Shown here: piece after piece, positions 1,079 through 41,625 of the stretch | Layout: each line of letters begins with the position of its first letter | Numbering within the stretch: position 1 is the first letter of the stretch | Source of the DNA: Candidatus Bathyarchaeia archaeon | GTDB taxonomy: Archaea > Thermoproteota > Bathyarchaeia > Bathyarchaeales > Bathycorpusculaceae | DNA: 45,753 nt | Assembly (NCBI GenBank): GCA_041500425.1 | Contig: JBGQME010000016.1 | Coordinates: forward strand, 1 to 45,753 | Direction: 5' to 3' | Notes under the pieces: generated by a model | Databases searched by the model: none | Told to the model about the DNA's origin: nothing | Seen by the model: only the letters and a program-made list of their open reading frames with translations | Translations under genes and position numbers: made by a program

Positions 1079-1174
1079 TGCTCCGGCCGGGATTTGGACC
1101 CGGGTCCGCGACTTTCTTCCACCCTTTTTGGTGTCGAGAGGCCGCTATACTTGACCGGACTATACTACCGGAGC
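1079..1174 (-). tRNA. tRNA-Glu (anticodon CUC) with a 21-nt intron at the canonical 37/38 position; CCA is encoded (through 1076).
   Basis: Reverse complement folds by hand as GCTCCGG-TA-GTAT-AGTCCGGTCAA-GTAT-A-GCGGC-CTCTCG|ACACCAAAAAGGGTGGAAGAA|A-GTCGC-GGAC-CCGGG-TCCAAAT-CCCGG-CCGGAGC-A-CCA. The acceptor stem is 7 bp, the anticodon stem is 5 bp (one G-U), and the loop is C-U-CUC-G-A. The intron lies at forward 1114..1134. The exons are near-identical to the intron-less tRNA-Glu at 20043..20117. Confidence 0.85.
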
Positions 1175-20042: not shown

Positions 20043-20117
20043 TGCTCCGGCCGGGATTTGGACCCGGGTCTCCGACTCGAAAGGCCGGAATACTTGACCG
20101 GGCTATACTACCGGAGC
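20043..20117 (-). tRNA. tRNA-Glu (anticodon UUC), intron-less; CCA is encoded (through 20040).
   Basis: Reverse complement reads GCTCCGG-TA-GTAT-AGCCCGGTCAA-GTAT-T-CCGGC-CTTTCGA-GTCGG-AGAC-CCGGG-TCCAAAT-CCCGG-CCGGAGC-A-CCA. Canonical cloverleaf. Anticodon loop is C-U-UUC-G-A. Confidence 0.9.
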
Positions 20118-29573: not shown

Positions 29574-31214
29574 ATGCAGTTAATGCTAGCAGAGGCCAAA
29601 TGCATCATGAGCGAGAAGACGATCGGTCGCGGTACATGGTATGACAAGATGGCTGCAAAGATCACTGAGAGAGAGGGAAAGCTAGGCAGAGACATGGATT
29701 TATTGAGAACAGAGATGGGCATTGCAGCTTCTGGTTTCCCGCATATTGGCAACTTGAGCGACGCGGCCAGGTCTTTCACCGTGACCTTAGCGTTGAGAGA
29801 GCAAGGCTTCAATTCTGAGCTTATCGCTTTTGCCGATGACAAGGATGGCTTAAGAAAGGTTCCGGCTGGAATGCCCGAGTCTCTGGAACAGCATTTGGGT
29901 AGGCCAGTGACCGATATTCCGGATATTTTCGGTTGCCACAAGAGCTACGGGGAACACATGACGTTGCTGGTTCGGGAAGGCATGGACAAGTGCGGTATCG
30001 AGTACAAGTTCATGTCGGCCACAGAAGTTTACAAAAGCGGGTTGTTTGACAACGAGATCAGAACCATTCTTCTGAATGCAAAGAAAATAGGAGAGATTAT
30101 GAGAGAGGAGGTTGGACAAGAAAAGTTTCTGGAAATTCTGCCTTATTTCGCGGTCTGCGAGAACTGCGGTCGAATTTACACGACTAAGACTTATGATTTT
30201 CTGCCCAAGGAGAACAAGGTTCTGTACGCGTGTGAGGGGATGGAGGTCAAAGGGCGGTGGCTGGAGGGCTGCGGGCATAAGGGTGAGATGGATTACAGGA
30301 AGGGTGAGGGGAAGCTAACCTGGAAGGGCGAGTTTGCGGTTCGTTGGAAGGCTTTGGACATTAGGTTTGAAGCTTTTGGGAAGGAGGTTGCTGATTCGGC
30401 GCGCGTGAATGATCGCATATGCCGAGAAATACTCGATTGGGAGCCGCCATCTCATGCGAAGTACGAGTTGTTTTTGGACAAGAGTGGCAAGAGAATGTCA
30501 AAGTCTGCTGGAGTAGGTCTCACTCCGCAAACGTGGTTCAAGTACGGTTCTCCAACTTCCCTCATGTTGCTGATGCTGAAGCGGTTTGTTGGTACGCGAG
30601 CGTTAGACGTGACTGATGTGCCGATTTACATGAATGAGCTGGGTGATCTGGAATACGTATACTTCGGTAAGAAACAGGCAAAGAGCGAAAGAGAACTTGT
30701 CAAGCTTCGGGGTTTGTACGAGTACTGCAGGGCTTTAGAGCCGCCTAAGAAGCCAAGCGTTAACGTGCCTTACAACTTGATGACGTTTCTTGTCAGGGTG
30801 GCTCCCAAAGGCAACGAAGAAGAGTACATAACCGAGAAGCTTCGCAGCTATGGCTACTTGCAGAAGAATCAGACTCTAGACGAGGATGTGAAAAGGCGAA
30901 TTGAGTATGCGTCTAATTGGATTAGGGATTTTGAGGAGATAAAAGAAACCGCAGTCACCCTCAGCGGTGATGAGAAAAAAGCTGTGGCAGAGTTGATAGA
31001 GGTGTTGAAGATCGAGGATGAATCTGAGAAGATACAGAACGCCGTGTTCAACATCGCTAAGAAACACAAGCTACAGGCAGGCAGTTTCTTCAAGGTTCTC
31101 TACAGTGTGCTGTTGGGGACCCTGCAGGGGCCCAGATTGGGTCCGTACATTCTTGCAATGGGAAAAGAGAACGTCACTGATGCCCTGCAAAGAGCATTAA
31201 GCCAACGCGAATAG
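29574..31214 (+). CDS. lysS: Lysyl-tRNA synthetase, class I (LysK-type).
   Basis: HIGH-type motif PHIGN. KMSKS-type motif RMSKSAGVG. The class I LysRS architecture is present. The start is likely the internal Met MSEKTIG (29598). Confidence 0.95.
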   Translation: MQLMLAEAKCIMSEKTIGRGTWYDKMAAKITEREGKLGRDMDLLRTEMGIAASGFPHIGNLSDAARSFTVTLALREQGFNSELIAFADDKDGLRKVPAGMPESLEQHLGRPVTDIPDIFGCHKSYGEHMTLLVREGMDKCGIEYKFMSATEVYKSGLFDNEIRTILLNAKKIGEIMREEVGQEKFLEILPYFAVCENCGRIYTTKTYDFLPKENKVLYACEGMEVKGRWLEGCGHKGEMDYRKGEGKLTWKGEFAVRWKALDIRFEAFGKEVADSARVNDRICREILDWEPPSHAKYELFLDKSGKRMSKSAGVGLTPQTWFKYGSPTSLMLLMLKRFVGTRALDVTDVPIYMNELGDLEYVYFGKKQAKSERELVKLRGLYEYCRALEPPKKPSVNVPYNLMTFLVRVAPKGNEEEYITEKLRSYGYLQKNQTLDEDVKRRIEYASNWIRDFEEIKETAVTLSGDEKKAVAELIEVLKIEDESEKIQNAVFNIAKKHKLQAGSFFKVLYSVLLGTLQGPRLGPYILAMGKENVTDALQRALSQRE

Positions 31215-31467: not shown

Positions 31468-31704
31468 TTGGGGGAGAGGGAATTGTTGAACAAGGTTATT
31501 TCTTGGGCAATGCTCGCGATGCTTCTTGCTGCGGGCTTGGTTTTGGTTCTTAAGACACCGGTAGTCAAAGCGACTGATACCATCTATATTAGGGCTGACG
31601 GCTCAATAGACCCACCCACAGCACCAATGCAACAAAATGCGAACAATCACACTTTGGCCAGTGATGGTTTCACATTGCAAGGTTCAGAAGGAAAGGAGAA
31701 ATGA
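31468..31704 (+). CDS. Small secreted protein, or an N-terminal remnant of a beta-helix/dockerin paralog (signal peptide plus the TIYIRADGSIDPPTAP motif).
   Basis: 78 aa. It has a hydrophobic signal-like N-terminus and the same TIYIRADGSIDPPTAP motif that opens the paralog at 36155. The TGA overlaps the ATG of the next ORF (ATGA). Confidence 0.4.
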   Translation: MGERELLNKVISWAMLAMLLAAGLVLVLKTPVVKATDTIYIRADGSIDPPTAPMQQNANNHTLASDGFTLQGSEGKEK

Positions 31705-34490
31705 TTGGGAAAGCCGCATCGGTAATGATGTGCGTATCGCTGCTAATAAGCATGCTAACCATTGCATTAGACATAAAACCAGTTGAAGCGAACCCAGCAA
31801 TTATTAATGTGCCCGAAGACTGCTCAACCATACAGGCAGCCATAAATACGGCAAATCTAGGAGATACAATTAATGTATCTTCAGGAACATACCGTGAGAA
31901 CGTGGTTCTGAACAAGACAGTTTCGCTCATCGGGGAGAACAAGCACAACACTGTTATTGATGGAAGCGGCACTGGAAACGTGATTAATGTAACAGCTAAC
32001 GACGTCAGCATAAGCGGCTTCACGATAAGAAACAGTGGGACATTATCATGGGTCGATTGCGGTATCCATGTTTACTACCAAAGCTATGGTAACAACATAA
32101 GCGACAACATTTTGACAAATAACTCAGTAGGAGTTTTCCTCGACGGTAGCAGGAACAATGCCCTTGCTAATAACTATGCCGAATCAAACTGGCCCATAGA
32201 TATTTGCCTCTTCTGTTCCGATAACAATGTCCTTGCTGGTAACGATGTCAAGTCAATCGGTATGGGTGGTTCTAACAATAATATTCTGATTGGCAACAAC
32301 GCTTCTTCAAACATCGGCGGGATCGGAATTCAAGCGGGCGGCTTCAATAACACTTATATTAACAACACTGCGTCAAACAACCGGATAGGAATTCGTCTCT
32401 CAGGTTGCAACAATGTCCTTATGGGTAATAACGTCTCATTCAACGACGAGGCTGGAATACACCTCATGACTGAGCCAAATCCGGAAACGCCATGCGAACA
32501 CAACATTCTTATTGGGAACATAGCCTCAAACACCCTCTCAGTATGGGGTGACGGAATCCGTGTCGATTTTTGCAACAACAACACCATTACTAATAACGTC
32601 GTTTCCTCAAACAACGGTTATGGAATTGACCTATCCGGTTCCAGTAATGACACCATCACCAACAACACCATTTTATTGAACAACCAAGCTGGGATCAGGC
32701 TCGGCACTTATGGAGAAGCTGTAAATGATAGATACTTCAGCAAAAACAACACCCTTATCGGAAATACTATTTCCTCAAACTATTATTATGGGATCTTGCT
32801 TGAACGTTCTAACGGTAACAAGGTTTTCCACAACGAGTTCATCAATAATATGGCTGTTCAAGCAATCTCAGCCTCACCTGAGTATGTAAACACATGGGAT
32901 GATGGTTACCCTTCTGGCGGCAACTATTGGAGCGACTATACTGGCGCGGACTTGTACAGTGGTCTTTATCAAAATGAGATAGGTCATGATGGAATAGGCG
33001 ACACACCATACGTTATCGATTCAAACAACCAAGATAATTATCCGCTTGTGAAGCCTTGGGAATTCATTGGCAATGAGACTATCTACATTAGGGCAGATGG
33101 AAGCGTTTATCCTTCAGGTGCTCCAGTCCATCGAGAGGAAGACCTCTACGCCTTGACTGACAGCATCACCAGTGACGCTGATGGAATCGTCGTTGAGAGG
33201 AATGATATTATATTCGATGGTGGAGGCTATAGTATTCAGGGATATGGAGTCGGAAACGGCTTTAGCTTGTTTGGCATACACAACTTCACCCTCGAGAACA
33301 CGAACATCCAAAGCTTCATGAATGGTACGTGCCTAGTTTCTTCTTCGAATAACACCATAATACGGAACAACATAACAGACACCTTGATGGGATTTTTCCT
33401 CAGTTCTTCTTTCAACAACACGCTTTCTGGAAACAATGTGACAGCGAACGTGGGATACGGAGTCTGGGGTATCAGTTCTTCATACAACGATGTGAGTGAG
33501 AACATCATAGCAACAAAAGACAGAATCTATTCCGGCATCGCTTTCTGCTCGTCTTCGAACAACACTATGATGTCAAACGATGTAACCGGCAACTCTGAGG
33601 GCATTCGGCTTGAAGGTTCTTCAAACTGCAGCATTGTTGGGAACAGCATAACAGCAAATGCAGTTGGCATCCAACTTTCTGATTCTTCAGACTCAAACAT
33701 TTTCTTCGAAAACAGCATAGTAGACAACTCATTCGGGATTCGGTTCATTTCATTACCCGATTCCTTGCCATGTTCTGGCAACAAGTTCTATCACAACAAC
33801 CTTGCAAACAACGCACAGCAGGTCGAACTATCTACGTCGAGCGCAATCGCAACCGTTTGGGATGATGGTTATCCTAGTGGCGGAAACTACTGGAGCGACT
33901 ACAATGGTGCAGACTTGCACAATGGGCCTCACCAGGACGTGACTGGCAGCGACGGTGTTGGAGACACACCCTATGTCATTGATGGAGTTAATCAAGACAA
34001 CTATCCATTCATGAGTCTGAACGGGTGGCTAACCTATCCGATATCAACTGAAAGCAACGTCACAATAACCGATATGAGGGCTGACGAATACTCTCTAAAC
34101 TTTACAGCCTCCGGCCCTATAGGGGAGACGGGCTACGTCAACGCCACTGTGCCAGTGGGACTTAACGCCACCGACATCACAGTATTCGTAGACGACGTTC
34201 AACCGAGCCCACCATTTCCAACAATCACCTCTAACGGCACACACTACTTCGTCTACTTCGAATTCACCCTCAGCACCCACGACATTAGCATACAGTATAA
34301 ACGCACAATTCTAGGCGACGTAAATGCAGACGGTGTCGTTGACAGCACCGATCTTGGCATACTAGGCAGTGCATGGGGCTCCTTCAAAGGTGATCCAAAC
34401 TACATTTCAGAAGCAGACATCAACGAAGACAGCGTAGTAGACTCAAGCGATCTAGGCATTATGGGCGCCCACTGGGGCGAAACCGAATAA
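31701..34490 (+). CDS. Large secreted right-handed parallel beta-helix (NosD/PbH1-repeat) protein with a C-terminal dockerin domain.
   Basis: 929 aa. It has a signal peptide and the beta-helix N-cap IINVPEDCSTIQAAINTANLGDTINVSSGTYRENVVL. It contains dozens of NN..xGN imperfect about 22-aa repeats. The module YPSGGNYWSDY.GADL...GDTPYVID..NQDNYP appears twice. The C-terminus GDVNADGVVDSTDLGIL...ADINEDSVVDSSDLGIMGAHWGETE is dockerin-type Ca-binding repeats. Confidence 0.85.
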   Translation: MIGKAASVMMCVSLLISMLTIALDIKPVEANPAIINVPEDCSTIQAAINTANLGDTINVSSGTYRENVVLNKTVSLIGENKHNTVIDGSGTGNVINVTANDVSISGFTIRNSGTLSWVDCGIHVYYQSYGNNISDNILTNNSVGVFLDGSRNNALANNYAESNWPIDICLFCSDNNVLAGNDVKSIGMGGSNNNILIGNNASSNIGGIGIQAGGFNNTYINNTASNNRIGIRLSGCNNVLMGNNVSFNDEAGIHLMTEPNPETPCEHNILIGNIASNTLSVWGDGIRVDFCNNNTITNNVVSSNNGYGIDLSGSSNDTITNNTILLNNQAGIRLGTYGEAVNDRYFSKNNTLIGNTISSNYYYGILLERSNGNKVFHNEFINNMAVQAISASPEYVNTWDDGYPSGGNYWSDYTGADLYSGLYQNEIGHDGIGDTPYVIDSNNQDNYPLVKPWEFIGNETIYIRADGSVYPSGAPVHREEDLYALTDSITSDADGIVVERNDIIFDGGGYSIQGYGVGNGFSLFGIHNFTLENTNIQSFMNGTCLVSSSNNTIIRNNITDTLMGFFLSSSFNNTLSGNNVTANVGYGVWGISSSYNDVSENIIATKDRIYSGIAFCSSSNNTMMSNDVTGNSEGIRLEGSSNCSIVGNSITANAVGIQLSDSSDSNIFFENSIVDNSFGIRFISLPDSLPCSGNKFYHNNLANNAQQVELSTSSAIATVWDDGYPSGGNYWSDYNGADLHNGPHQDVTGSDGVGDTPYVIDGVNQDNYPFMSLNGWLTYPISTESNVTITDMRADEYSLNFTASGPIGETGYVNATVPVGLNATDITVFVDDVQPSPPFPTITSNGTHYFVYFEFTLSTHDISIQYKRTILGDVNADGVVDSTDLGILGSAWGSFKGDPNYISEADINEDSVVDSSDLGIMGAHWGETE

Positions 34491-34509
34491 CCCCGAACAC
34501 GTCCTGAAT

Positions 34510-34815
34510 TCACGGCTTCTGCCAGAACAGGTAGACTTTCGTCTGCAACAGAAAGCCACAGGTTTTGATGAGCGTTGCCAGTTGCTCAACGCTGGCGTTC
34601 CTCACCTTCTTATCATAGAGCTTTGTGTCCCCGTAGGGCATGCCACCGACGAAGACTTTGAAAAACCGTGGATGCTTGTACTTAATCAACGCAGTTCTGA
34701 CAGCTTTCTCCTCTGTAGGCCTAAACTCCCCAAGCTTCCTCATAACGTAGCTGTGGCTGCCGAGCAGTTCAAGATTAAATCCGAGCCCTTTGAGAATATC
34801 TGCGAGCTTCAGCAC
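34510..34815 (-). CDS. HicA/YcfA-like small protein (GSH motif), paralog 1.
   Basis: 101 aa. LKGLGFNLELLGSHSYV resembles the HicA motif L..GF....R.GSH..Y. The C-terminus ...VEQLATLIKTCGF is like the HicA tail. It is about 90% identical to 38181..38468. Confidence 0.4.
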   Translation of the reverse strand: MLKLADILKGLGFNLELLGSHSYVMRKLGEFRPTEEKAVRTALIKYKHPRFFKVFVGGMPYGDTKLYDKKVRNASVEQLATLIKTCGFLLQTKVYLFWQKP

Positions 34816-34975
34816 CTGCTGGATCGGCGTCTGCTCAGCGCGCGCTTAGTGCACCTCGTGGAACTCGGCTTCTAATACGTGACAGGTGAGTACGATGACG
34901 GCGGAAAGCTGTTTAAGAAGAAAAAGCTGTTATATCTCGGCTCGCAGACCTCAGAAGGGTAGTAGTCCAGGTGAA

Positions 34976-35087
34976 AGGGCCCGTAGTCTAGTCTGGATAC
35001 CAGTGTCCTCCTCACTTTTTCCAGAGGTTTGGATTAGGACACTGGCCTGCGGAGCCGGAGATCCTGGGTTCAAATCCCAGCGGGCCC
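34976..35087 (+). tRNA. tRNA-Arg (anticodon GCG) with a roughly 37-nt non-canonical intron in the D-loop.
   Basis: The 112-nt locus folds as acceptor GGGCCCG/CGGGCCC (discriminator G), D-stem GTCT/GGAC, anticodon stem CTGGC/GCCGG, anticodon loop C-U-GCG-G-A, variable loop AGATC, T-arm CTGGG-TTCAAAT-CCCAG. The D-loop is 47 nt, against 8-11 normally. It contains a 10-bp inverted repeat CCAGTGTCCT...AGGACACTGG. UGGAU is duplicated at both exon junction candidates. Confidence 0.75.
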
Positions 35088-35118
35088 GCTACTCTATGCT
35101 TTTCTACGTTCTTTTCTC

Positions 35119-35484
35119 TTGAAAATCAGTCAATACGGATACCCCCATTATGGTTTTCAGATCGTTGGATTTCAGCTTCGTTGTAAAGTCTTAAGTGTCA
35201 TCAATGGGCATTTTGTGTCTGGGTTGTCGCTGATGAGTGCTGTGGCGTTTGATGGAACTGAGGTTTTGCTCACCGAGGAGAGGTGGAAACATATTGTTTT
35301 GAGGCATCCGGAGTTGGAGGATAAATTGTCTTTGGTTGTGAATGCGGTTGCCAGCCCTGAAGTTTATCTTGATGCAGGTGGAGCGTTTCACGTTTTGAAA
35401 AGGCTTTCTAATGAAGTGTCTGATTATCTTGTGGTGATCTATTTCAAGGAACATGGAGAAGGCTATATAAGAACGGCTTACTAG
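35119..35484 (+). CDS. DUF4258-like putative toxin.
   Basis: The probable start is the internal Met (MSAVAFDGTEVLLTEERWKHIVLRHPE...). The H....RH motif and the size fit DUF4258. A DUF2283-like gene follows. Confidence 0.45.
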   Translation: MKISQYGYPHYGFQIVGFQLRCKVLSVINGHFVSGLSLMSAVAFDGTEVLLTEERWKHIVLRHPELEDKLSLVVNAVASPEVYLDAGGAFHVLKRLSNEVSDYLVVIYFKEHGEGYIRTAY

Positions 35485-35561
35485 ACGAGTCATGGAAGAA
35501 AAGTCAGGAGGTATAAGCTATTCAGAAGGTTAAGACCCTCCTAGATATTGATGTCAAAGAA

Positions 35562-35774
35562 GTGTTGGAAAGAATAGAGAAGAAATATCGTGTGAAGTTG
35601 CCACGTAAGGTTATTACTGTTGACTATGGCGACGATGTGGGCGATCTCTTCATTAGGTTTAAGCATGCGAAGACTAGTGAGGGTGAGCCGACTGGGGACG
35701 GGCAAGTGATATTGCATTATGATGAAGACAAGAACATAGTGGCGGTAGAAATTCTGAGCATTGCAGCTCTGTAA
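35562..35774 (+). CDS. DUF2283-like small protein (putative antitoxin partner).
   Basis: 70 aa. ITVDYGDDVGDLFIRF...VAVEIL matches the DUF2283 pattern (I.V.YD.EAD.LYI.F .... IVGIEIL). Confidence 0.5.
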   Translation: MLERIEKKYRVKLPRKVITVDYGDDVGDLFIRFKHAKTSEGEPTGDGQVILHYDEDKNIVAVEILSIAAL

Positions 35775-35844
35775 TCTTGATCTATTGAACTCTTCTATTA
35801 CGATAACCGTTTTTGTTGTGTCAGAGTCCTTGATCTAGGCTGGA

Positions 35845-35900
35845 CTCAGACTTCAGTGGCGATATCTCCCGCGTACCCCCTCTTTTTCTCTTATGCAGAA
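35845..35900 (+). repeat. Second copy of the motif (TCTAGGCTGGACTCAGACTTCAGTGGCGATATCTCCCGC) upstream of beta-helix paralog 2. A third partial copy (CAGTAGAGATATCACCC) is at 35973..35993.
   Basis: It aligns by eye to 31280..31320 with about 80% identity. Both lie about 200-300 nt upstream of the paralogous secreted-protein genes. Confidence 0.5.
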
Positions 35901-35944
35901 AAACTAGAATTTTCTTCTATGACCAGGCCCATGTTTATGCTCTG

Positions 35945-35990
35945 AAGCCGGGTGGGATTCGAACCCCCACCACAGTAGAGATATCACCCA
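35945..35990 (-). other. tRNA-like 3'-half fragment (T-arm GGGGGTTCGAATCCCACC plus acceptor-like tail) without a 5' partner; a pseudo-tRNA remnant.
   Basis: The reverse strand reads GGTGGGGGTTCGAATCCCACCCGGCTTCA. The T-loop consensus GTTCGAATC is perfect. No complementary 5' acceptor strand exists within 150 nt. It lies inside an insertion in the upstream region of the second beta-helix paralog. Confidence 0.3.
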
Positions 35991-36154
35991 AAGTCTAAAC
36001 TATTAGTCGACTTTTCTGCTAATCTGATATACCCAGTTAGAAGTAAGACGACTTTGAATGGAAGCGTTGTGAAGAGGTTGAGCACGCACCGTATAGCTTC
36101 TTACCACAAAGGATATCTAGTGGTTGAACCTATACTAAGACTGGGGGAAGGAAA

Positions 36155-38161
36155 TTGCCAAACAGAGTACTTCTTGGACCCTTGTTGGCACTCCTGTTTA
36201 GTAGCATGTTAGCAGGGACTTTTCACATTGAGCCCGTCAAAGCAAGCGGAACCATTTACATCAGGGCTGACGGAAGCATAGACCCCCCAACAGCACCAAT
36301 TTCGACCGTTGACAACGTTACCTACATCTTCATAGATAATATTAACGATTCCGTTGTTGTTGAGAGGGACAGCATAATAATAGATGGAAACAGCTCCACG
36401 CTTCAAGGAGACGGAACAGGTGTTGGGTTGGGTCTGGAAGGAAGACGAGGCATAACCGTCAAGAAAATAACCATCATAAATTTCTCGGTGGGCATCTACA
36501 TGTACAGCGAATATAGCTACTATGGTGTCTGCACCATAAGAGACAACACAATACTAAACTGCAATTGGGCAGGCATCGAGGTTGTTGGGTACAATAACAA
36601 CAACATAAGAGGCAACATCGTAACAAATACCCCTTATGGCATCTACCTAAGTGGATGTGATGGCAACATCGTAAGCAACAATTACATAAACGGCGGTGGC
36701 ATCTACTTGAACGGGGGAAGTGACAGCAATACTATAAGCTATAACAAGATAATGAACAGTGCTGACGGCATTATACTAATGGACAATTGTGGCAACAACA
36801 TCATAAGCTGCAACGACGTAGTAGATAGCTGGTTTTATGGCTTCTATGTATACTTATGTTTTAATAACATCATCTATCACAACAACATCATCAACAACGA
36901 TGTTCAGGTTTATAGTGAAGCTTCGGTCAACATTTGGGATGATGGGTATCCTTCTGGCGGAAACTACTGGAGCGACTATGCTGGCGTAGACTTTTACAGT
37001 GGTCCTTATCAGAATGAGACAGGCAGAGATGGAATAGGAGATACTCCATACATCATTGATGCAACCAATACAGACAGATATCCACTCCGGAATCCGTGGC
37101 CATTCAGAATAGTCGAAACAACCGTCAATATAGCAGGAACAAATTACACCATCCCAATAGAAAGTAACGCGGCAATAACCCATGCTGTTGCCACGAAAAG
37201 CGCTCTATACTTTAACACATCTGGCCCCACTGGAACAACAGGCTACATCAACATATCCTTCCCAATGGGCCTCAACAAAACCGAAATCAAAGTGTTCATT
37301 GACGGTGTGAAGCTCACGCCCCCTCCCTATCCAATAATCACCTCTAACGGAACACATTACTTCATTTATTTTGAGTCCACCCTAAGCGTTCACGACACGA
37401 TTGTGCAATACGCAATTGTTGACATAGCAACAACCAACGTCACACCACACAAAACAGTAGTAGGTCAAGGCTACTGCACATCCATTAACGTGACCGTTGA
37501 GAATCAAGGCAACTACACAGAAACGTTTAAAGTCTTCGCCTACTACGACGAGTTAGTTATCCCCACACCTTCACAGTGGGACACTTTCTGGAGCATGGGA
37601 GACGTAAACAGAGACGGCTTTATTGACATGGAAGACTACGCCTTATTAGAGGCTGCATGGGGTTCCTATCCTGGTCACCCAAGATGGGACCCACGTTGCG
37701 ACCTCAACCAAGACGGCCACGTAGGCCCAGTGGATTTGGGCATTTACGGCGCAAACTACGGCAGAAACATCTGGACATACTTCGGATTAGGAACACCCCC
37801 CATCGGAACAAAAATAGTTACCAACCTACCCAACGGAACTTCCACCACCATTACCTTCACATGGAACACTACAGGCTTTGCTAAGGGCAACTACACCATA
37901 AGCGCCTACGCTGAGCCTGTTCCAGGCGAAACCGACACAGAAGACAACCTGTTCACAGGCGGATTAGTCAAGATTGGCATTCCAGGCGACATAAACGGAG
38001 ACACTGTCGTTGATTCAACCGATCTAGGCATACTTGGCGGTGCATGGGGATCATACAAAGGAGACCTAATCTACAATCCGAATACTGATATCGATGGCGA
38101 TGGAGTAGTAGACTCAAGCGACTTAGGCATAATGGGCGCTCACTGGGGCGAAACAGAATAG
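36155..38161 (+). CDS. Secreted parallel beta-helix protein with a CARDB-like domain and two dockerin modules (paralog of 31701..34490).
   Basis: 668 aa. Signal peptide, TIYIRADGSIDPPTAP, beta-helix repeats, the YPSGGNYWSDYAGVDFYSG...GDTPYIID module, an Ig-like region, and a CARDB-like segment (NVTPHKTVVGQGYCTSINVTVENQGNYTETFKVFAYYD). Dockerin-like GDVNRDGFID...CDLNQDGHVGPVDLGI and GDINGDTVVDSTDLGIL...DIDGDGVVDSSDLGIMGAHWGETE follow. The last 16 aa are identical to the paralog. Confidence 0.85.
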   Translation: MPNRVLLGPLLALLFSSMLAGTFHIEPVKASGTIYIRADGSIDPPTAPISTVDNVTYIFIDNINDSVVVERDSIIIDGNSSTLQGDGTGVGLGLEGRRGITVKKITIINFSVGIYMYSEYSYYGVCTIRDNTILNCNWAGIEVVGYNNNNIRGNIVTNTPYGIYLSGCDGNIVSNNYINGGGIYLNGGSDSNTISYNKIMNSADGIILMDNCGNNIISCNDVVDSWFYGFYVYLCFNNIIYHNNIINNDVQVYSEASVNIWDDGYPSGGNYWSDYAGVDFYSGPYQNETGRDGIGDTPYIIDATNTDRYPLRNPWPFRIVETTVNIAGTNYTIPIESNAAITHAVATKSALYFNTSGPTGTTGYINISFPMGLNKTEIKVFIDGVKLTPPPYPIITSNGTHYFIYFESTLSVHDTIVQYAIVDIATTNVTPHKTVVGQGYCTSINVTVENQGNYTETFKVFAYYDELVIPTPSQWDTFWSMGDVNRDGFIDMEDYALLEAAWGSYPGHPRWDPRCDLNQDGHVGPVDLGIYGANYGRNIWTYFGLGTPPIGTKIVTNLPNGTSTTITFTWNTTGFAKGNYTISAYAEPVPGETDTEDNLFTGGLVKIGIPGDINGDTVVDSTDLGILGGAWGSYKGDLIYNPNTDIDGDGVVDSSDLGIMGAHWGETE

Positions 38162-38180
38162 CCTCGAACACGTGCTGAAT

Positions 38181-38468
38181 TCAAGGCTTCTGCCAGAACA
38201 GGTAGACTTTCGTCTGCAACAGAAAACCACACGTCTTAATCAGCGTCGCCAGCTGCTCAACGCTGGCGCCTCTCACTTTCTTATCGTAGAGCTTCGTGTC
38301 ACCGTAGGGCTTGCCGCCGACGAAGACTTTGAAGAACCGTGGATGCTTGTACTTTATCAACGCAGTTCTGACAGCCTTCTCCTCCTTAGGGCTGAGTTCA
38401 CGGAGCTTCCTGAGCACGTAGCTGTGGCTGCCGAGCAGTTCAAGATTGAAGCCGAGCCCTTCAAGCAT
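38181..38468 (-). CDS. HicA/YcfA-like small protein, paralog 2.
   Basis: 95 aa and about 90% identical to 34510..34815 at protein and DNA level. Its start overlaps the upstream HTH gene by 8 nt. Confidence 0.4.
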   Translation of the reverse strand: MLEGLGFNLELLGSHSYVLRKLRELSPKEEKAVRTALIKYKHPRFFKVFVGGKPYGDTKLYDKKVRGASVEQLATLIKTCGFLLQTKVYLFWQKP

Positions 38469-38733
38469 GCCTGCAAGCTCCTAGGGCAGCACTCAACCAT
38501 ATCATAACATTCTCAATGCTCGGCAGTTCCTTGGGCAAAACCTGAGAAGAAGAAGGCGGTTGATTCTTTTCACTGCCTACTTCTACTCGTAACCCAAGGC
38601 GCCGCATCTTATGATAGATCATGTCCTCATTCTTGCCCAGGACCTTCGCGATCACATCAATGTCTTTGCGCTTCTTGACAAGTTGAATGAGCGTGCGCTC
38701 CTCTTCCTTGGTCCACGGCTTACCCTTTGGCAC
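38461..38733 (-). CDS. Small Myb/SANT-like helix-turn-helix protein.
   Basis: 90 aa. WTKEEERTLIQLVKKRKDIDVIAKVLGKNEDMIYHKMRRLGL has the W..EE..L...V......IA..LG.....I..K...LG pattern of Myb-like HTH domains. It overlaps both neighbours. Confidence 0.5.
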   Translation of the reverse strand: MPKGKPWTKEEERTLIQLVKKRKDIDVIAKVLGKNEDMIYHKMRRLGLRVEVGSEKNQPPSSSQVLPKELPSIENVMIWLSAALGACRHA

Positions 38734-39319
38734 GATATTCCTCCTTAAGCATGAAGACTCTGACGCGGCTTCGTTTTCCCTTACTTGCCAATCCTGTTCT
38801 GTAAAGTTCGTTCAAATGCAGGCTTTCTACTGCCCGAGATCGCTTCGTGATCTTGGCTACTTGCTCGGCTGACGTAGGTCCAGAGAAGGACTTGAGAGCG
38901 TCAATGGTTGTCTGTATGCCCGTGGATAAGTAGACAGGTTTCACGGGTCCATGTTGATTCTGAGAAGATGCGATGACTAGATCTCTCAGTGCCCTAATGT
39001 CCTTTCGGATTTTCACAAGCGCTCTGACAATTTCGCGGTATTGTGCTCCCATTGCTAGCTCACCTTTTGCCCCGCGAAGATCCCAAGGATCGTTCCGGTT
39101 AGCAAGGATATTGTAGAAGATCTCACTGCTCAACGTGTGAAGGAGAATAAGATGGGCAATCTCCAAGCCTGACAAGCAGAGCGTCATGCCGATCCCAAAC
39201 TTCACTAGCAACACCAGTTTCTCGTTCGGTTCCACAATGACAAGCCTGCCTCGACTGCTTCTTCTATCCCGGTCTTCTGGAACCTTACGCGTCAGCGCAT
39301 CGCGAATCACGTCTTTCAC
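38720..39319 (-). CDS. Hypothetical protein with a C-terminal winged-HTH (putative regulator), first gene of a three-gene operon.
   Basis: 199 aa. The C-terminus SAEQVAKITKRSRAVESLHLNELYRTGLASKGKRSRVRVF looks like a wHTH recognition helix plus wing. The N-terminal 130 aa are unassigned. Confidence 0.45.
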   Translation of the reverse strand: MKDVIRDALTRKVPEDRDRRSSRGRLVIVEPNEKLVLLVKFGIGMTLCLSGLEIAHLILLHTLSSEIFYNILANRNDPWDLRGAKGELAMGAQYREIVRALVKIRKDIRALRDLVIASSQNQHGPVKPVYLSTGIQTTIDALKSFSGPTSAEQVAKITKRSRAVESLHLNELYRTGLASKGKRSRVRVFMLKEEYRAKG

Positions 39320-39500
39320 GTGTTATTACCGTACCCATGGTTTATGACGCGCATCTGCGCCATCCGCTTCGTCCGACGTCCACCGACGAGAAAGCTGTTC
39401 AGCAACAGCCTAGCTTCTGGCGTCAAAGGCTTTCTGCAGAACGAACGCTGGCAAACCTGGCCAACGAACTCGCCCGCTTCTTGCTTCCGTGCTGGACGCT

Positions 39501-39686
39501 TCAGTGTATGGCGCTTTTCTGCGTTTGTTCTTGCACGGCTTTCCGCATCAAATCCTTGATGGCGTCACTGATGCCGTGTGGGTACTGAGGATTGACCACT
39601 TGTTCCATGAAGTCTTTGAGCAAGCTGCTCTGAATGCTATAGATCGTCAGGCTCACCACGATCCCGTCCCCCAGCTTGGCCTGCAT
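39501..39686 (-). CDS. Ribbon-helix-helix (CopG-like) small protein, possible orphan antitoxin or regulator.
   Basis: 61 aa. A beta-strand GIVVSLTIYS is followed by two helices (SSLLKDFMEQV / ISDAIKDLMRKAVQE), which is the RHH pattern. No partner ORF is adjacent. Confidence 0.35.
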   Translation of the reverse strand: MQAKLGDGIVVSLTIYSIQSSLLKDFMEQVVNPQYPHGISDAIKDLMRKAVQEQTQKSAIH

Positions 39687-40026
39687 TGCTCGTTCACCTC
39701 GCTTTTGGTAGGCTGGGCACGTCTGCCTTCACGCAGCGCATAACCCTGAACAGTGTGCAAGAGGGGAAGTCCCTTCAACGTGGCTCGTGAAAACAGGCTT
39801 GCCATGCCCAATGGACTTCGAAGAGTCTAGCCCTTAAAAGGGCAACGCCTGAACGACTCAGCTGCTGCCTGGAGAGGCGAGTGAAAGTGTAACCCTAGAG
39901 CATGCGTTCGCAAGTCAAATATGCTGACTATCTGCGACTACTGATTATCACGCTTTCGGTTGAGGGCTTTCGCTTTATTAGCATATATCTGGAAACACTG
40001 CATATCTTAATTGCGAGGTTCAGACT

Positions 40027-41625
40027 GTGCACGACTTTTCCTATAAACAGATGGACTTGGGCATGAAGGGGACTAAGAGTTCAAGTGGTGCGAATCTTGG
40101 TTTTGAAGAGAAAATGTGGAAGGCAGCGGATAAGCTACGGAATAACATGGATGCTGCGGAGTACAAGCACGTTGTCTTGGGTCTCGTTTTCTTGAAGTAT
40201 ATTTCTGACGCGTTTGAAGAAGTGCACAACGAGTTATTGAATGATCCTGAAAAGCTGTCGGACCCCGAAGAGATTGATGAGTACAAAATGAGAAATGTTT
40301 TCTGGGTGCCGCCTGATGCGAGATGGGAACTGCTGCAAAAGAATGCGAAGCAGCCCAACATTGGTATTCTCGTGGATAATGCGATGGATGCGATAGAACG
40401 AGACAACAGTTCTCTGAAAGGTGTCTTGCCCAAGAATTATGGTCGCGAGGCCTTGGACAAACAGAGACTTGGGGAATTGATCGATTTAGTCGGCACCATC
40501 GGCTTAGGGGATAAGGAAAGCAGAAGCAAAGACATCCTCGGCAGAGTCTACGAATACTTTCTAGGGCAATTTGCGGATGCTGAAGGCAAGAAAGGCGGAC
40601 AATTCTACACGCCAAGAAGCATAGTCCAGCTGCTGGCAGCCATGATTGAGCCGTTCAAAGGGCGGGTTTTTGACCCCTGCTGTGGTTCTGGCGGGATGTT
40701 TATTCAAAGCGAGAAATTCGTTCAAGCCCACCAGGGCAGGTTAGACGACATAAACGTTTACGGTCAAGAGTCAAACCAGACAACATGGCGGCTGTGCAAG
40801 ATGAACTTGGCAATACGCCACATCGAGTCCAAGTTTGTAATATGGAATAACGAGGGAAGCTTCCTAAACGATGCCCACAAGGATTTGAAGGCAGATTATC
40901 TTCTTGCAAATCCGCCGTTTAATGATTCAGACTGGAAAGGCGAGTCGGTCAAAGAAGATATGCGGTGGAAATTTGGGGTTCCGCCTGTGGGAAACGCCAA
41001 CTTCGCATGGGTCCAACACTTCATACACCACCTCGCACCAAGAGGAATTGCCGGCTTCGTTCTCGCCAACGGCTCCATGAGTTCGAACACGTCAAACGAG
41101 GGCGAAATACGAAAAAACATAGTCGAAGCCGACCTCGTAGACTGCATGGTTGCCTTACCCTCGCAGTTATTCTACAATACCATGATTCCAGCCTGCCTAT
41201 GGTTCATAGCCAGAGACAAACAAAACAACAAATACAGAGACCGAAGAGGAGAGGTACTATTCATCGACGCAAGAAAACTTGGCATAATGGTGGACAGAAG
41301 GCACAGAAAACTGACTTTAGAAGACATCAAAAAGATTGCTGACACTTACCACTGTTGGAGAGGTGAACTCGTCGAAGGACAAAAAGTGGAGTATGCAGAT
41401 GTTCTTGGATTCTGCAAATCGGTCAAGCTTGGTGGAATCAGAAAACAAGGGCACATTTTGACTCCCGGCAGATACGTTGGCGCCGAGGAAGAAGAGGATG
41501 ATGGAGAAGAATTTGAGGAAAAGATGAAGCGATTCACGTCTGAGCTTGCGGCGCAGATAAACGAGGGAAACAGGCTTGATGAAGAAATAAAGAAGAATCT
41601 TGAGAAGATTGGGTATGGTCTTTGA
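40027..41625 (+). CDS. hsdM: Type I restriction-modification system methyltransferase subunit HsdM.
   Basis: N-terminal HsdM_N ([31 protein letters not shown]). SAM motif [11 protein letters not shown]. Catalytic NPPF ([11 protein letters not shown]). Confidence 0.95.

Follow-up and report, generated by a model that had tools for sequence, protein, structure and literature searches.

A bathyarchaeal tRNA-Arg(GCG) gene with a conserved D-loop insert and no recognisable bulge-helix-bulge motif

How might a tRNA gene whose D-loop is interrupted by 36 nt, with no recognisable bulge-helix-bulge (BHB) motif around the insert, yield a working tRNA? The question is raised by a tRNA-Arg(GCG) gene at positions 34977-35088 (+) of a 45,753-nt stretch of DNA from Candidatus Bathyarchaeia archaeon (contig JBGQME010000016.1 of assembly GCA_041500425.1; G+C about 46%), which we refer to as the window. 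This tRNA-Arg(GCG) gene is genuine, and the intron in its D-loop is both conserved and atypical. We assign a probability of roughly 0.6 to the joint reading that the tRNA is functional, that the insert is spliced out without a recognisable BHB, and that it originated as a fold-back duplication of the D-arm.

The interrupted gene and its relatives

The gene is made up of the following parts:

34977-35088 (+): tRNA-Arg(GCG) precursor, 112 nt including discriminator G73, with no encoded CCA (sequence reading, ARAGORN on the spliced form, partial Rfam match)
34977-34998 (+): exon 1, comprising the acceptor 5' strand, the D-stem 5' strand GUCU and the D-loop portion AGUCUGGAU (six-register deletion, relatives); owing to the TGGAT repeat, its 3' end may be placed at any position from 34993 to 34998
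34999-35034 (+): 36-nt D-loop insert (intron), between tRNA positions 20a/20b or in equivalent registers back to 17/17a
35035-35088 (+): exon 2, comprising U20b-A21, the D-stem 3' strand, the anticodon arm, the variable loop, the T-arm, the acceptor 3' strand and G73

The canonical stems, anticodon loop, T-arm and 47-nt D-loop (11 + 36 nt) described in an initial annotation of this DNA are present on direct reading of the sequence. The acceptor stem is a 7-bp helix, GGGCCCG/CGGGCCC (34977-83 and 35081-87), followed by the discriminator G at 35088; the D-stem pairs GUCU with GGAC; the anticodon arm, CUGGC-CUGCGGA-GCCGG, carries GCG (35049-51) in a 7-nt loop that contains U33; and the T-arm is CUGGG-UUCAAAU-CCCAG (T-arm motif GGUUCAAAUCC). 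The annotation had placed the gene at 34976-35087, one base to the left of the coordinates given by the acceptor and discriminator.

Default ARAGORN called no tRNA at 34977-35088, and the Rfam tRNA model, run on unspliced DNA at the gathering threshold, aligned only the 3' two-thirds of the gene (35024-35081, model positions 7-64, 29.2 bits). After deletion of the 36 nt, ARAGORN reports a tRNA-Arg(gcg) with its cloverleaf restored; the predicted spliced tRNA-Arg therefore stands, at a length of 76 nt instead of the 75 nt first proposed. Deleting 36 nt in any of six registers leads to one identical 76-nt product, because the TGGAT repeat flanks the cut site, and the predicted spliced junction reads ...AGUCUGGAU|UAGGACACUGG..., that is, GUCUGGAU|UAGGAC. 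The minimum free energy (MFE) structure that RNAfold gives for the spliced 76-nt sequence is not a cloverleaf, which we did not count against its identity as a tRNA; unmodified tRNA sequences folded in silico often miss the cloverleaf. In its intron mode, ARAGORN proposed for the precursor a tRNA-Asn(att) with a 23-nt intron. This call was rejected, as the resulting Asn tRNA would be 89 nt long and have an A34 anticodon, and the exact orthology to tRNA-Arg(GCG) is disregarded.

Relatives were sought by a pattern scan for tRNA-Arg(GCG) in one genome per GTDB species and by a separate scan of metagenomes. The former found 20 intron-bearing genes, 16 of them in Bathyarchaeia/Bathyarchaeota metagenome-assembled genomes (MAGs), three in Thermoproteus/Pyrobaculum and one in a Nitrosopumilales MAG; within this set, the D-loop insert of the window recurs only in Bathyarchaeia SPRUCE 440 (locus L006). 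The metagenome scan added four loci of the D-loop class (L028, L027, L026 and L030), and L029 likewise has a D-loop insert. L028 is a near-identical strain whose tRNA gene is identical to that of the window, and L027 has the same 36-nt architecture. We refer to the window, L006 and L027 as group A and to L026, L029 and L030 as group B. Synteny offered no route to homologues, as the neighbours are not conserved in L006, L026, L027, L029 or L030; for searches aimed at group-A genes, GGATACCAGNGTCC is a suggested seed sequence.

The distribution of the insert also bears on whether the interruption is an assembly or chance artefact, an idea with nothing in its favour and already refuted, to which we give practically no weight. 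The interrupted gene occurs in the window and, as an identical tRNA gene, in L028, with a diverged form in L006 and L027. The locus is also found in contigs from the Joint Genome Institute (JGI) and NCBI, and two Logan contigs, which stop short of the tRNA, cover part of it.

In Bathyarchaeia, the common state of tRNA-Arg(GCG) is a different one, an anticodon-stem intron of 13-28 nt at position 29/30 (L007-L020, L022, L024, L025 and L031). This class shares with the window the tRNA, the lineage and a non-canonical intron position, but differs in the position itself, in having a clear BHB (in both genes scanned, L008 and L013), and in lacking an antisense image of the D-arm. Among the genes seen, 29/30 and D-loop introns are mutually exclusive. 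In introns of both classes, the D-stem 3' strand and the region of position 26 find an antisense counterpart. In their exons, 25 Bathyarchaeia tRNA-Arg(GCG) genes are nearly identical to the window gene, and the near-identity of the 29/30-class exons makes these genes usable as a reference for the mature D-arm. The uninterrupted D-arm GTCTAGTCTGGATTAGGAC of L013, L020 and L024 matches the predicted D-arm of the spliced window gene exactly, and the D-loop of the relatives is 11 nt long. With its junction defined exactly by homology, its insert kept in relatives and its exons under selection, the gene fits its original description as a tRNA-Arg(GCG) with a non-canonical, intron-like D-loop insert.

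Selection on the gene, precursor fold and absence of a bulge-helix-bulge

Pairwise comparison of the three independent sequences of group A revealed an uneven distribution of change. The exons differ at 2-5 of 76 positions, the first ten intron nucleotides at 0-1 of 10 and the last five at none of 5, against 7-13 of 21 for the intron interior and 25-31 of 40 for the 3' flank. Fisher tests of the exons against the intron interior gave p <= 2e-4. The exon changes fit the cloverleaf, and one T-stem pair shows a compensatory change from A-U to U-A. With exons and intron ends conserved, and interior and flanks not, the gene is under selection as a tRNA, and such a pattern speaks for a working tRNA gene in which the ends of the intron matter. 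A decoding need can also be stated. CGU and CGC make up 58 of the 262 Arg codons in 12 large open reading frames (ORFs) of the window, and inosine-34 for Arg is, to our knowledge, not known in archaea; a tRNA with a GCG anticodon is therefore needed.

The elements within and around the insert are as follows:

34994-34998 (+): TGGAT direct repeat, copy 1, on the exon-1 side (kept in L006 and L027)
35000-35009 (+): 5' strand of helix P1, CCAGUGUCCU, intronic, an antisense image of tRNA positions 21-30 (reading, folds, shuffle test)
35009-35033 (+): P2, a variable inner hairpin region, in the window UCC/GGA plus ACUUUU/AGAGGU, or CCUC/GAGG (MFE fold)
35020-35025 (+): UCCAGA, antisense to UCUGGA of exon 1 (34992-34997), the second piece of the antisense D-arm image
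35030-35034 (+): TGGAT direct repeat, copy 2, at the 3' end of the insert (0/5 differences among group-A homologues)
35034-35036 (+): UUA, a 3-nt bulge at the 3' junction between P1 and UCC/GGA (window MFE fold)
35036-35045 (+): 3' strand of P1, AGGACACUGG, in exon 2, comprising A21, the D-stem 3' strand, A26 and the anticodon-stem 5' strand

The 10-bp perfect inverted repeat, its 26-nt loop and the TGGAT duplication at both exon ends are all present as initially described, with CCAGTGTCCT (35000-09) the exact reverse complement of AGGACACTGG (35036-45). The inverted repeat exceeds what chance would give, as just 2 of 500 intron shuffles match the reverse complement of the mature tRNA equally well. 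In the precursor, intron nucleotides 2-11 pair with exon-2 positions 21-30 to form P1 (9-10 bp), which is intact in the window and L027 and has two mismatches in L006. P2 is variable, with 7-13 of 21 positions differing between homologues and three pairs changed on both sides in the consensus fold. The UCCAGA block is present in L006, L026, L029 and L030 and absent in L027. The precursor fold is more stable than all 200 shuffles (z = -3.9). The MFE and consensus folds both have the 3' strand of the D-stem and the 5' strand of the anticodon stem locked up in P1; the 5' junction is found 1-2 nt 5' of one strand of P1, and the 3' junction falls in a bulge 5' of the other. The size of this bulge varies, from 3 nt in the window to 5-6 nt in L006 and 8 nt in L027 (MFE, consensus and constrained folds).

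These folds bear on the idea that the 36 nt are simply retained, giving a mature tRNA with an expanded D-arm and extra hairpins. When the cloverleaf stems are enforced, small hairpins do form on an extended D-stem, but the exon-1 equivalents of G18/G19 are then paired in a hairpin and the second GG copy in the extended D-stem, both unavailable for contact between the D-loop and the T-loop. Moreover, the unconstrained fold wrecks the D and anticodon stems, and the relatives have an 11-nt D-loop. We know of no tRNA with a 47-nt D-loop, and we find retention scarcely credible. A further candidate, a C/D box guide of the Haloferax pre-tRNA-Trp type or another structured RNA within the insert, was rejected for want of boxes or an Rfam family. 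Such a guide has a C box (RUGAUGA) and a D box (CUGA) on either side of an antisense stretch of 10-12 nt. Direct reading of the 36 nt found neither UGAUGA nor CUGA, and Rfam at E <= 1 gave no match inside the insert, only the tRNA model and a sub-threshold, tRNA-like mascRNA-menRNA match in exon 2.

We judge splicing to be the most likely fate of the group-A insert on the strength of these sequence comparisons, and several observations weigh against this reading. The comparison of group A draws on three independent sequences only (window, L006 and L027). Next, the upstream leader and promoter region is of the ancestral type in L006, L027 and L028 and has been replaced in the window up to tRNA nucleotide 1, so that expression of the window copy is putative. 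The remaining points concern the motif itself. We used a scanner with the geometry hBHBh' (strand 1 h-H-bulge-h', strand 2 h'-H-bulge-h, cut after the second bulge nucleotide), in which a strict BHB has a 4-bp helix and a 3-nt bulge 3' of each strand. In every comparator, the correct BHB was the top solution compatible with the product length; these were tRNA-Glu(CUC) of the window (37/38), L008 and L013 (29/30), and L005, L018, L021, L023, L026 and L030, and for the D-loop intron of Pyrobaculum (L023) the BHB recovered was GGAU[GGG]/GUCC[AAA]. In the window, L006 and L027, no strict BHB giving a 76-nt product was found at the six junction registers. Allowing bulges of 2-5 nt and products of 73-79 nt yielded no junction-compatible motif common to the three sequences, nor did they share an hBH or HBh' motif compatible with the junction. 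When sequential or nested introns were allowed in group A, every motif obtained had H = 3 and 0-2 bp in its flanking helices. A BHB with an enlarged 5' bulge (up to 16 nt) was also discarded, as the fraction of shuffles reaching its score was 0.23-0.76 and it lies 16-21 kcal/mol above the MFE.

The group-A insert thus has no recognisable BHB. The initial annotation had taken the inverted repeat and the TGGAT duplication for the signature of a BHB. The repeat pairs the intron with exon 2 and places the junctions 5' of the strands, across 9-10 bp; the signature is unsupported because the junction polarity mirrors that of a BHB and the helix is 9-10 bp long, not 4 bp. The BHB prediction that the annotation had called for found no compatible fold around 34997-35035, and this part of it falls. 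As to a relaxed motif, the 3' junction sits in a 3-nt bulge between two helices in the MFE fold of the window, and does not do so in L006 or L027. The one geometry-correct drawing, which is of the enlarged-bulge kind scored above and does no better than shuffled introns, has H = C17-U18-G19-G20 with N53-U54-G55-G56 (CUGG/NUGG) and P2 as h'; its 3' site has a perfect 3-nt bulge, AU|U, and its 5' site a loop of 12-13 nt. A BHB found only in the window, AGUC[UAG]...GGUU[UGG] with h' = UCUGGA/UCCAGA, was rejected; it gives a 71-nt product with a 6-nt D-loop without G18/G19, and L006 and L027 do not conserve it.

A TATA-like element (TTTATCTC or CTTATTTC) lies about 31 nt upstream of the tRNA in L006, L027 and L028. 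In the window, a similar TTATATCTCGG occurs at 34929-34940, about 46 nt upstream of the tRNA in otherwise unrelated sequence, and may serve as a substitute promoter with a longer leader.

Group B provides the closest comparison. Its introns interrupt the same tRNA in the same D-loop region, with the same exon-2 start UGGAUUA, and share with the window the intron blocks UCUGGA, GUGUCC-like (L026) and UUCCAGA. They carry a clean BHB that gives a 76-nt product (H, CUAG/CU[A/G]G; bulges of 3 nt; a long h' of 4-6 bp), in inserts of 41-45 nt with the junction at 17/17a. The window type, in contrast, has TGGAT as its flanks where group B has CTAG, and the segments from which H3 and the h' base are built are missing from it. 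In alignment, group A equals group B minus these segments; the difference means a BHB lost by group A or one gained by group B. Within group B, L029 (4746-4895, +) contains, besides its D-loop BHB intron, a second insert of 29 nt. It repeats the anticodon arm in tandem, in degenerate form, between copies of the 8-nt direct repeat GCCGGAGA, and has no clean BHB; one weak BHB-like scanner solution of 76 nt would put CCUGAAA in place of the anticodon loop.

If group A is the derived state, the window gene could be a crippled copy. A group-B-like BHB would have been lost through small deletions, with NNAGGCUG (about 8 nt) missing on the 5' side and AGCCCUAGA (about 9 nt) on the 3' side, leaving the precursor unspliceable, with CGY (CGU and CGC) codons read by another tRNA-Arg(GCG) elsewhere. 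The alignment favours this account in that exactly the segments for H3 and the h' base are missing, and no BHB is left in group A; the native leader and promoter have been replaced in the window, and the family is prone to odd insertions such as the tandem anticodon-arm duplication of L029. A dead gene would, however, be expected to decay uniformly, and here the exons and both intron ends are conserved in three lineages while flanks and interior are saturated with changes, and a T-stem pair has undergone a compensatory double change. In addition, the pattern scan found no 29/30-class copy in the MAG of L006, although an intron-less copy would escape the pattern. We therefore regard a crippled copy as unlikely, though it deserves to be taken seriously.

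The conserved helix suggests another alternative, that excision does not depend on a BHB at all and that P1, with covarying P2, sets the sites 1-2 nt 5' of each P1 strand. The enzyme would then be the splicing endonuclease EndA in an undescribed binding mode, or some other nuclease. Consistent with this, conservation within the intron falls on its P1 strand and on the bases next to the junctions, both junctions lie at the ends of P1 in the consensus fold, and a P1-like complementarity can be drawn in the group-B apical loop (by hand pairing, and by antisense alignment for L026). On the other hand, we found no precedent in the literature consulted, L006 carries two uncompensated mismatches in P1, and the conservation of P1 may instead reflect an origin as an antisense copy or a role in folding. 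Excision of this kind seems to us quite improbable.

Proposed splicing and origin of the insert

According to our preferred reading, splicing by an endonuclease of the known type, the precursor would be unable to adopt the tRNA fold as long as the first 10 intron bases pair with exon-2 positions 21-30, because P1 ties up one strand each of the D-stem (3') and the anticodon stem (5'). The insert would be cut out between the two TGGAT copies and the exons ligated, producing a 76-nt tRNA with the D-loop AGUCUGGAUUA. The enzymes involved are most likely a broad-specificity (alpha-beta)2-type splicing endonuclease of TACK (Thaumarchaeota, Aigarchaeota, Crenarchaeota and Korarchaeota) archaea and an RtcB-type ligase. 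Since no BHB is recognisable, recognition would have to rest on a strongly relaxed or as yet undefined motif.

Published work describes considerable latitude in these enzymes, in keeping with the view that one of broad specificity, of the (alpha-beta)2 or epsilon2 type, could be at work here. In vitro, EndA of the crenarchaeon Aeropyrum pernix removes a D-loop intron and cleaves relaxed bulge-helix-loop (BHL) motifs as well (PMC3241643). The (alpha-beta)2 form of EndA is found mainly in TACK archaea, including Bathyarchaeota, and tolerates variable bulge lengths (PMC7714728), and an hBH or HBh' unit can act as a splice site independently (PMC4090602). BHB covariance models missed about 2.9% of non-canonical introns (PMC8450103). 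In the literature consulted, we found no described precedent for an archaeal tRNA intron without any BHB-like motif.

The nearest known counterparts are the D-loop intron in pre-tRNA-Thr2(UGU) from A. pernix and the multi-intron tRNAs of Thermoproteales, which resemble the window gene in having a short insert whose removal restores the tRNA, in a TACK host. As in the window, introns of this type coexist with canonical 37/38 introns in one genome. For a D-loop intron, cleavage by (alpha-beta)2 EndA has experimental proof (PMC3241643). These introns differ in that they have a BHB or a recognisable hBH, HBh' or BHL motif, whereas the scanner recovers none in the window gene and its two homologues.

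The insert looks like an antisense copy of the D-arm of the tRNA itself. It can be written as CCAGUGUCCU-[10 nt]-UCCAGA, and the reverse complement of tRNA positions 14-30 is CCAGUGUCCUAAUCCAGACU. The locus has a layout of sense (exon 1 to UGGAU), antisense (positions 30 back to 16) and sense again (UGGAU onward). The L026 intron is colinear with the antisense of D-arm positions 10-25 (GUCCUA-AUCCAG-CCUAGA). Shuffled introns equalled the antisense D-arm match in 2 of 500 cases for the window, 7 of 500 for L027 and 3 of 500 for L026; by the same test, the antisense image is absent from 29/30-class and Pyrobaculum introns. We infer that the insert may have been born by a small sense-antisense-sense duplication of the D-arm, through fold-back replication with two template switches. 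Such an origin would explain in one event the 10-bp inverted repeat that forms P1, the complementarity of UCUGGA and UCCAGA, and the TGGAT repeat.

The locus in its genome and implications

Two further tRNA genes and one strain-variable segment complete the features of the window:

1079-1174 (-): tRNA-Glu(CUC), with a 21-nt canonical 37/38 BHB intron at 1114-1134 and CCA at 1076-1078 (top scanner hit, 75-nt product)
20043-20117 (-): tRNA-Glu(UUC), intron-less
35840-38474 (no strand assigned): segment with the second NosD/beta-helix/dockerin gene, absent from L028 (window compared with L028)

The BHB at 37/38 confirms the canonical-position intron reported for tRNA-Glu(CUC), and canonical and non-canonical intron positions do coexist in the window. 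CCA is encoded after the discriminator of tRNA-Glu(CUC) (1076-1078, -), while CTA follows that of tRNA-Arg(GCG) (35089-35091, +), so CCA encoding is not uniform among the tRNA genes of this genome. A class I lysyl-tRNA synthetase gene at 29574-31214 is identical on JBGOWW010000003.1 (GCA_041478845.1) and on a JGI metagenome contig, and its closest named homologues are from Candidatus Bathyarchaeia.

The tRNA lies, as first noted, between duplicated modules. NosD/beta-helix/dockerin paralogues at 31701-34490 and 36155-38161, with shared repeats of 69-82% identity, flank it on both sides. Both are of the secreted type, with a C-terminal dockerin and a right-handed beta-helix, and the second also has a CARDB domain. 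The paralogue 3' ends and the DNA downstream (34308-34607 and 37979-38278) are 82% identical over 300 nt and bracket the tRNA. The multiple toxin-antitoxin genes said to flank the tRNA find little support; among the flanking ORFs a single one, for a DUF2283 protein (35562-35774, 26.6 bits), has a signature related to such systems.

Homology between the window and L028 (98.4%) starts exactly at tRNA nucleotide 1 (34977) and ends at 35839. After the segment absent from L028, it resumes at 38475-39921 with 88.4% identity. Besides the tRNA, the 98.4% block (34977-35839) contains the DUF2283 gene and an ORF whose length is 83-121 aa according to which start codon is used. The difference in identity between the two blocks suggests either a recent exchange or movement of the tRNA block, or faster-evolving neighbours. 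With these breakpoints and the extra segment, the locus is rearrangement-prone. The initial proposal of an integration hotspot holds for the strain breakpoint at the tRNA and not for the other marks of one. The flanking ORFs scanned had no match to an integrase or recombinase family, no att-type repeat of the tRNA-Arg was reported elsewhere in the window (seed 14, minimum length 40), and viral contigs scanned for the tRNA as an att site gave 0 matches.

A search for the T-loop motif picked up nothing but an unrelated, isolated T-arm-like hairpin, GGGUUCGAAUCCC followed by CCGGCUUCA, without a tRNA body, at 35954-35966 (-; context 35940-35990). It is located about 115 nt inside the left edge of the 35840-38474 segment, is not reported by ARAGORN or Rfam, and could be a tRNA 3' fragment left by recombination or a chance occurrence. 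A few kb downstream of the variable region, at 40027-41625 (+), is a gene for an HsdM type I restriction-modification methylase (N6_Mtase + HsdM_N), consistent with a defence or variable-gene neighbourhood.

Strain heterogeneity at a tRNA with a non-canonical intron is also seen at the tRNA-Thr locus of Caldiarchaeum subterraneum (PMC3293823). Unlike the disruption by a mobile element in that case, neither a recombinase gene nor a tRNA-fragment repeat was found beside the window tRNA, and a local inverted duplication accounts for the insert better than a mobile element does.

D-loop introns are already well known in TACK archaea, and the presence of one is in itself ordinary. What is unusual here is a conserved and selected intron without a BHB, the motif on which intron-finding tools and the accepted model of recognition are based. 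Default ARAGORN and Rfam miss or shorten the gene, and tools built on BHB models may well do so too, so that a MAG could appear to be without a CGY decoder. If the insert is spliced despite the absence of a BHB, the interest of the locus rises substantially. In its strongest form, the idea would be that of a conserved, selected archaeal tRNA intron without a BHB, excised at sites set by P1, itself an antisense copy of the D-arm; we hold this to be rather improbable. If true, the splicing machinery or another nuclease would recognise a class of substrate that is not yet described, and tRNA introns could arise via fold-back duplication, with group B showing maturation into a BHB. The 29/30 introns, the D-loop introns with a BHB and those without one form a natural series of three states of one tRNA in one class of archaea, which may serve as a probe of the limits of EndA specificity. 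Likewise, the antisense image of an exon next to a 5-nt direct repeat offers a testable clue to the origin of archaeal tRNA introns.

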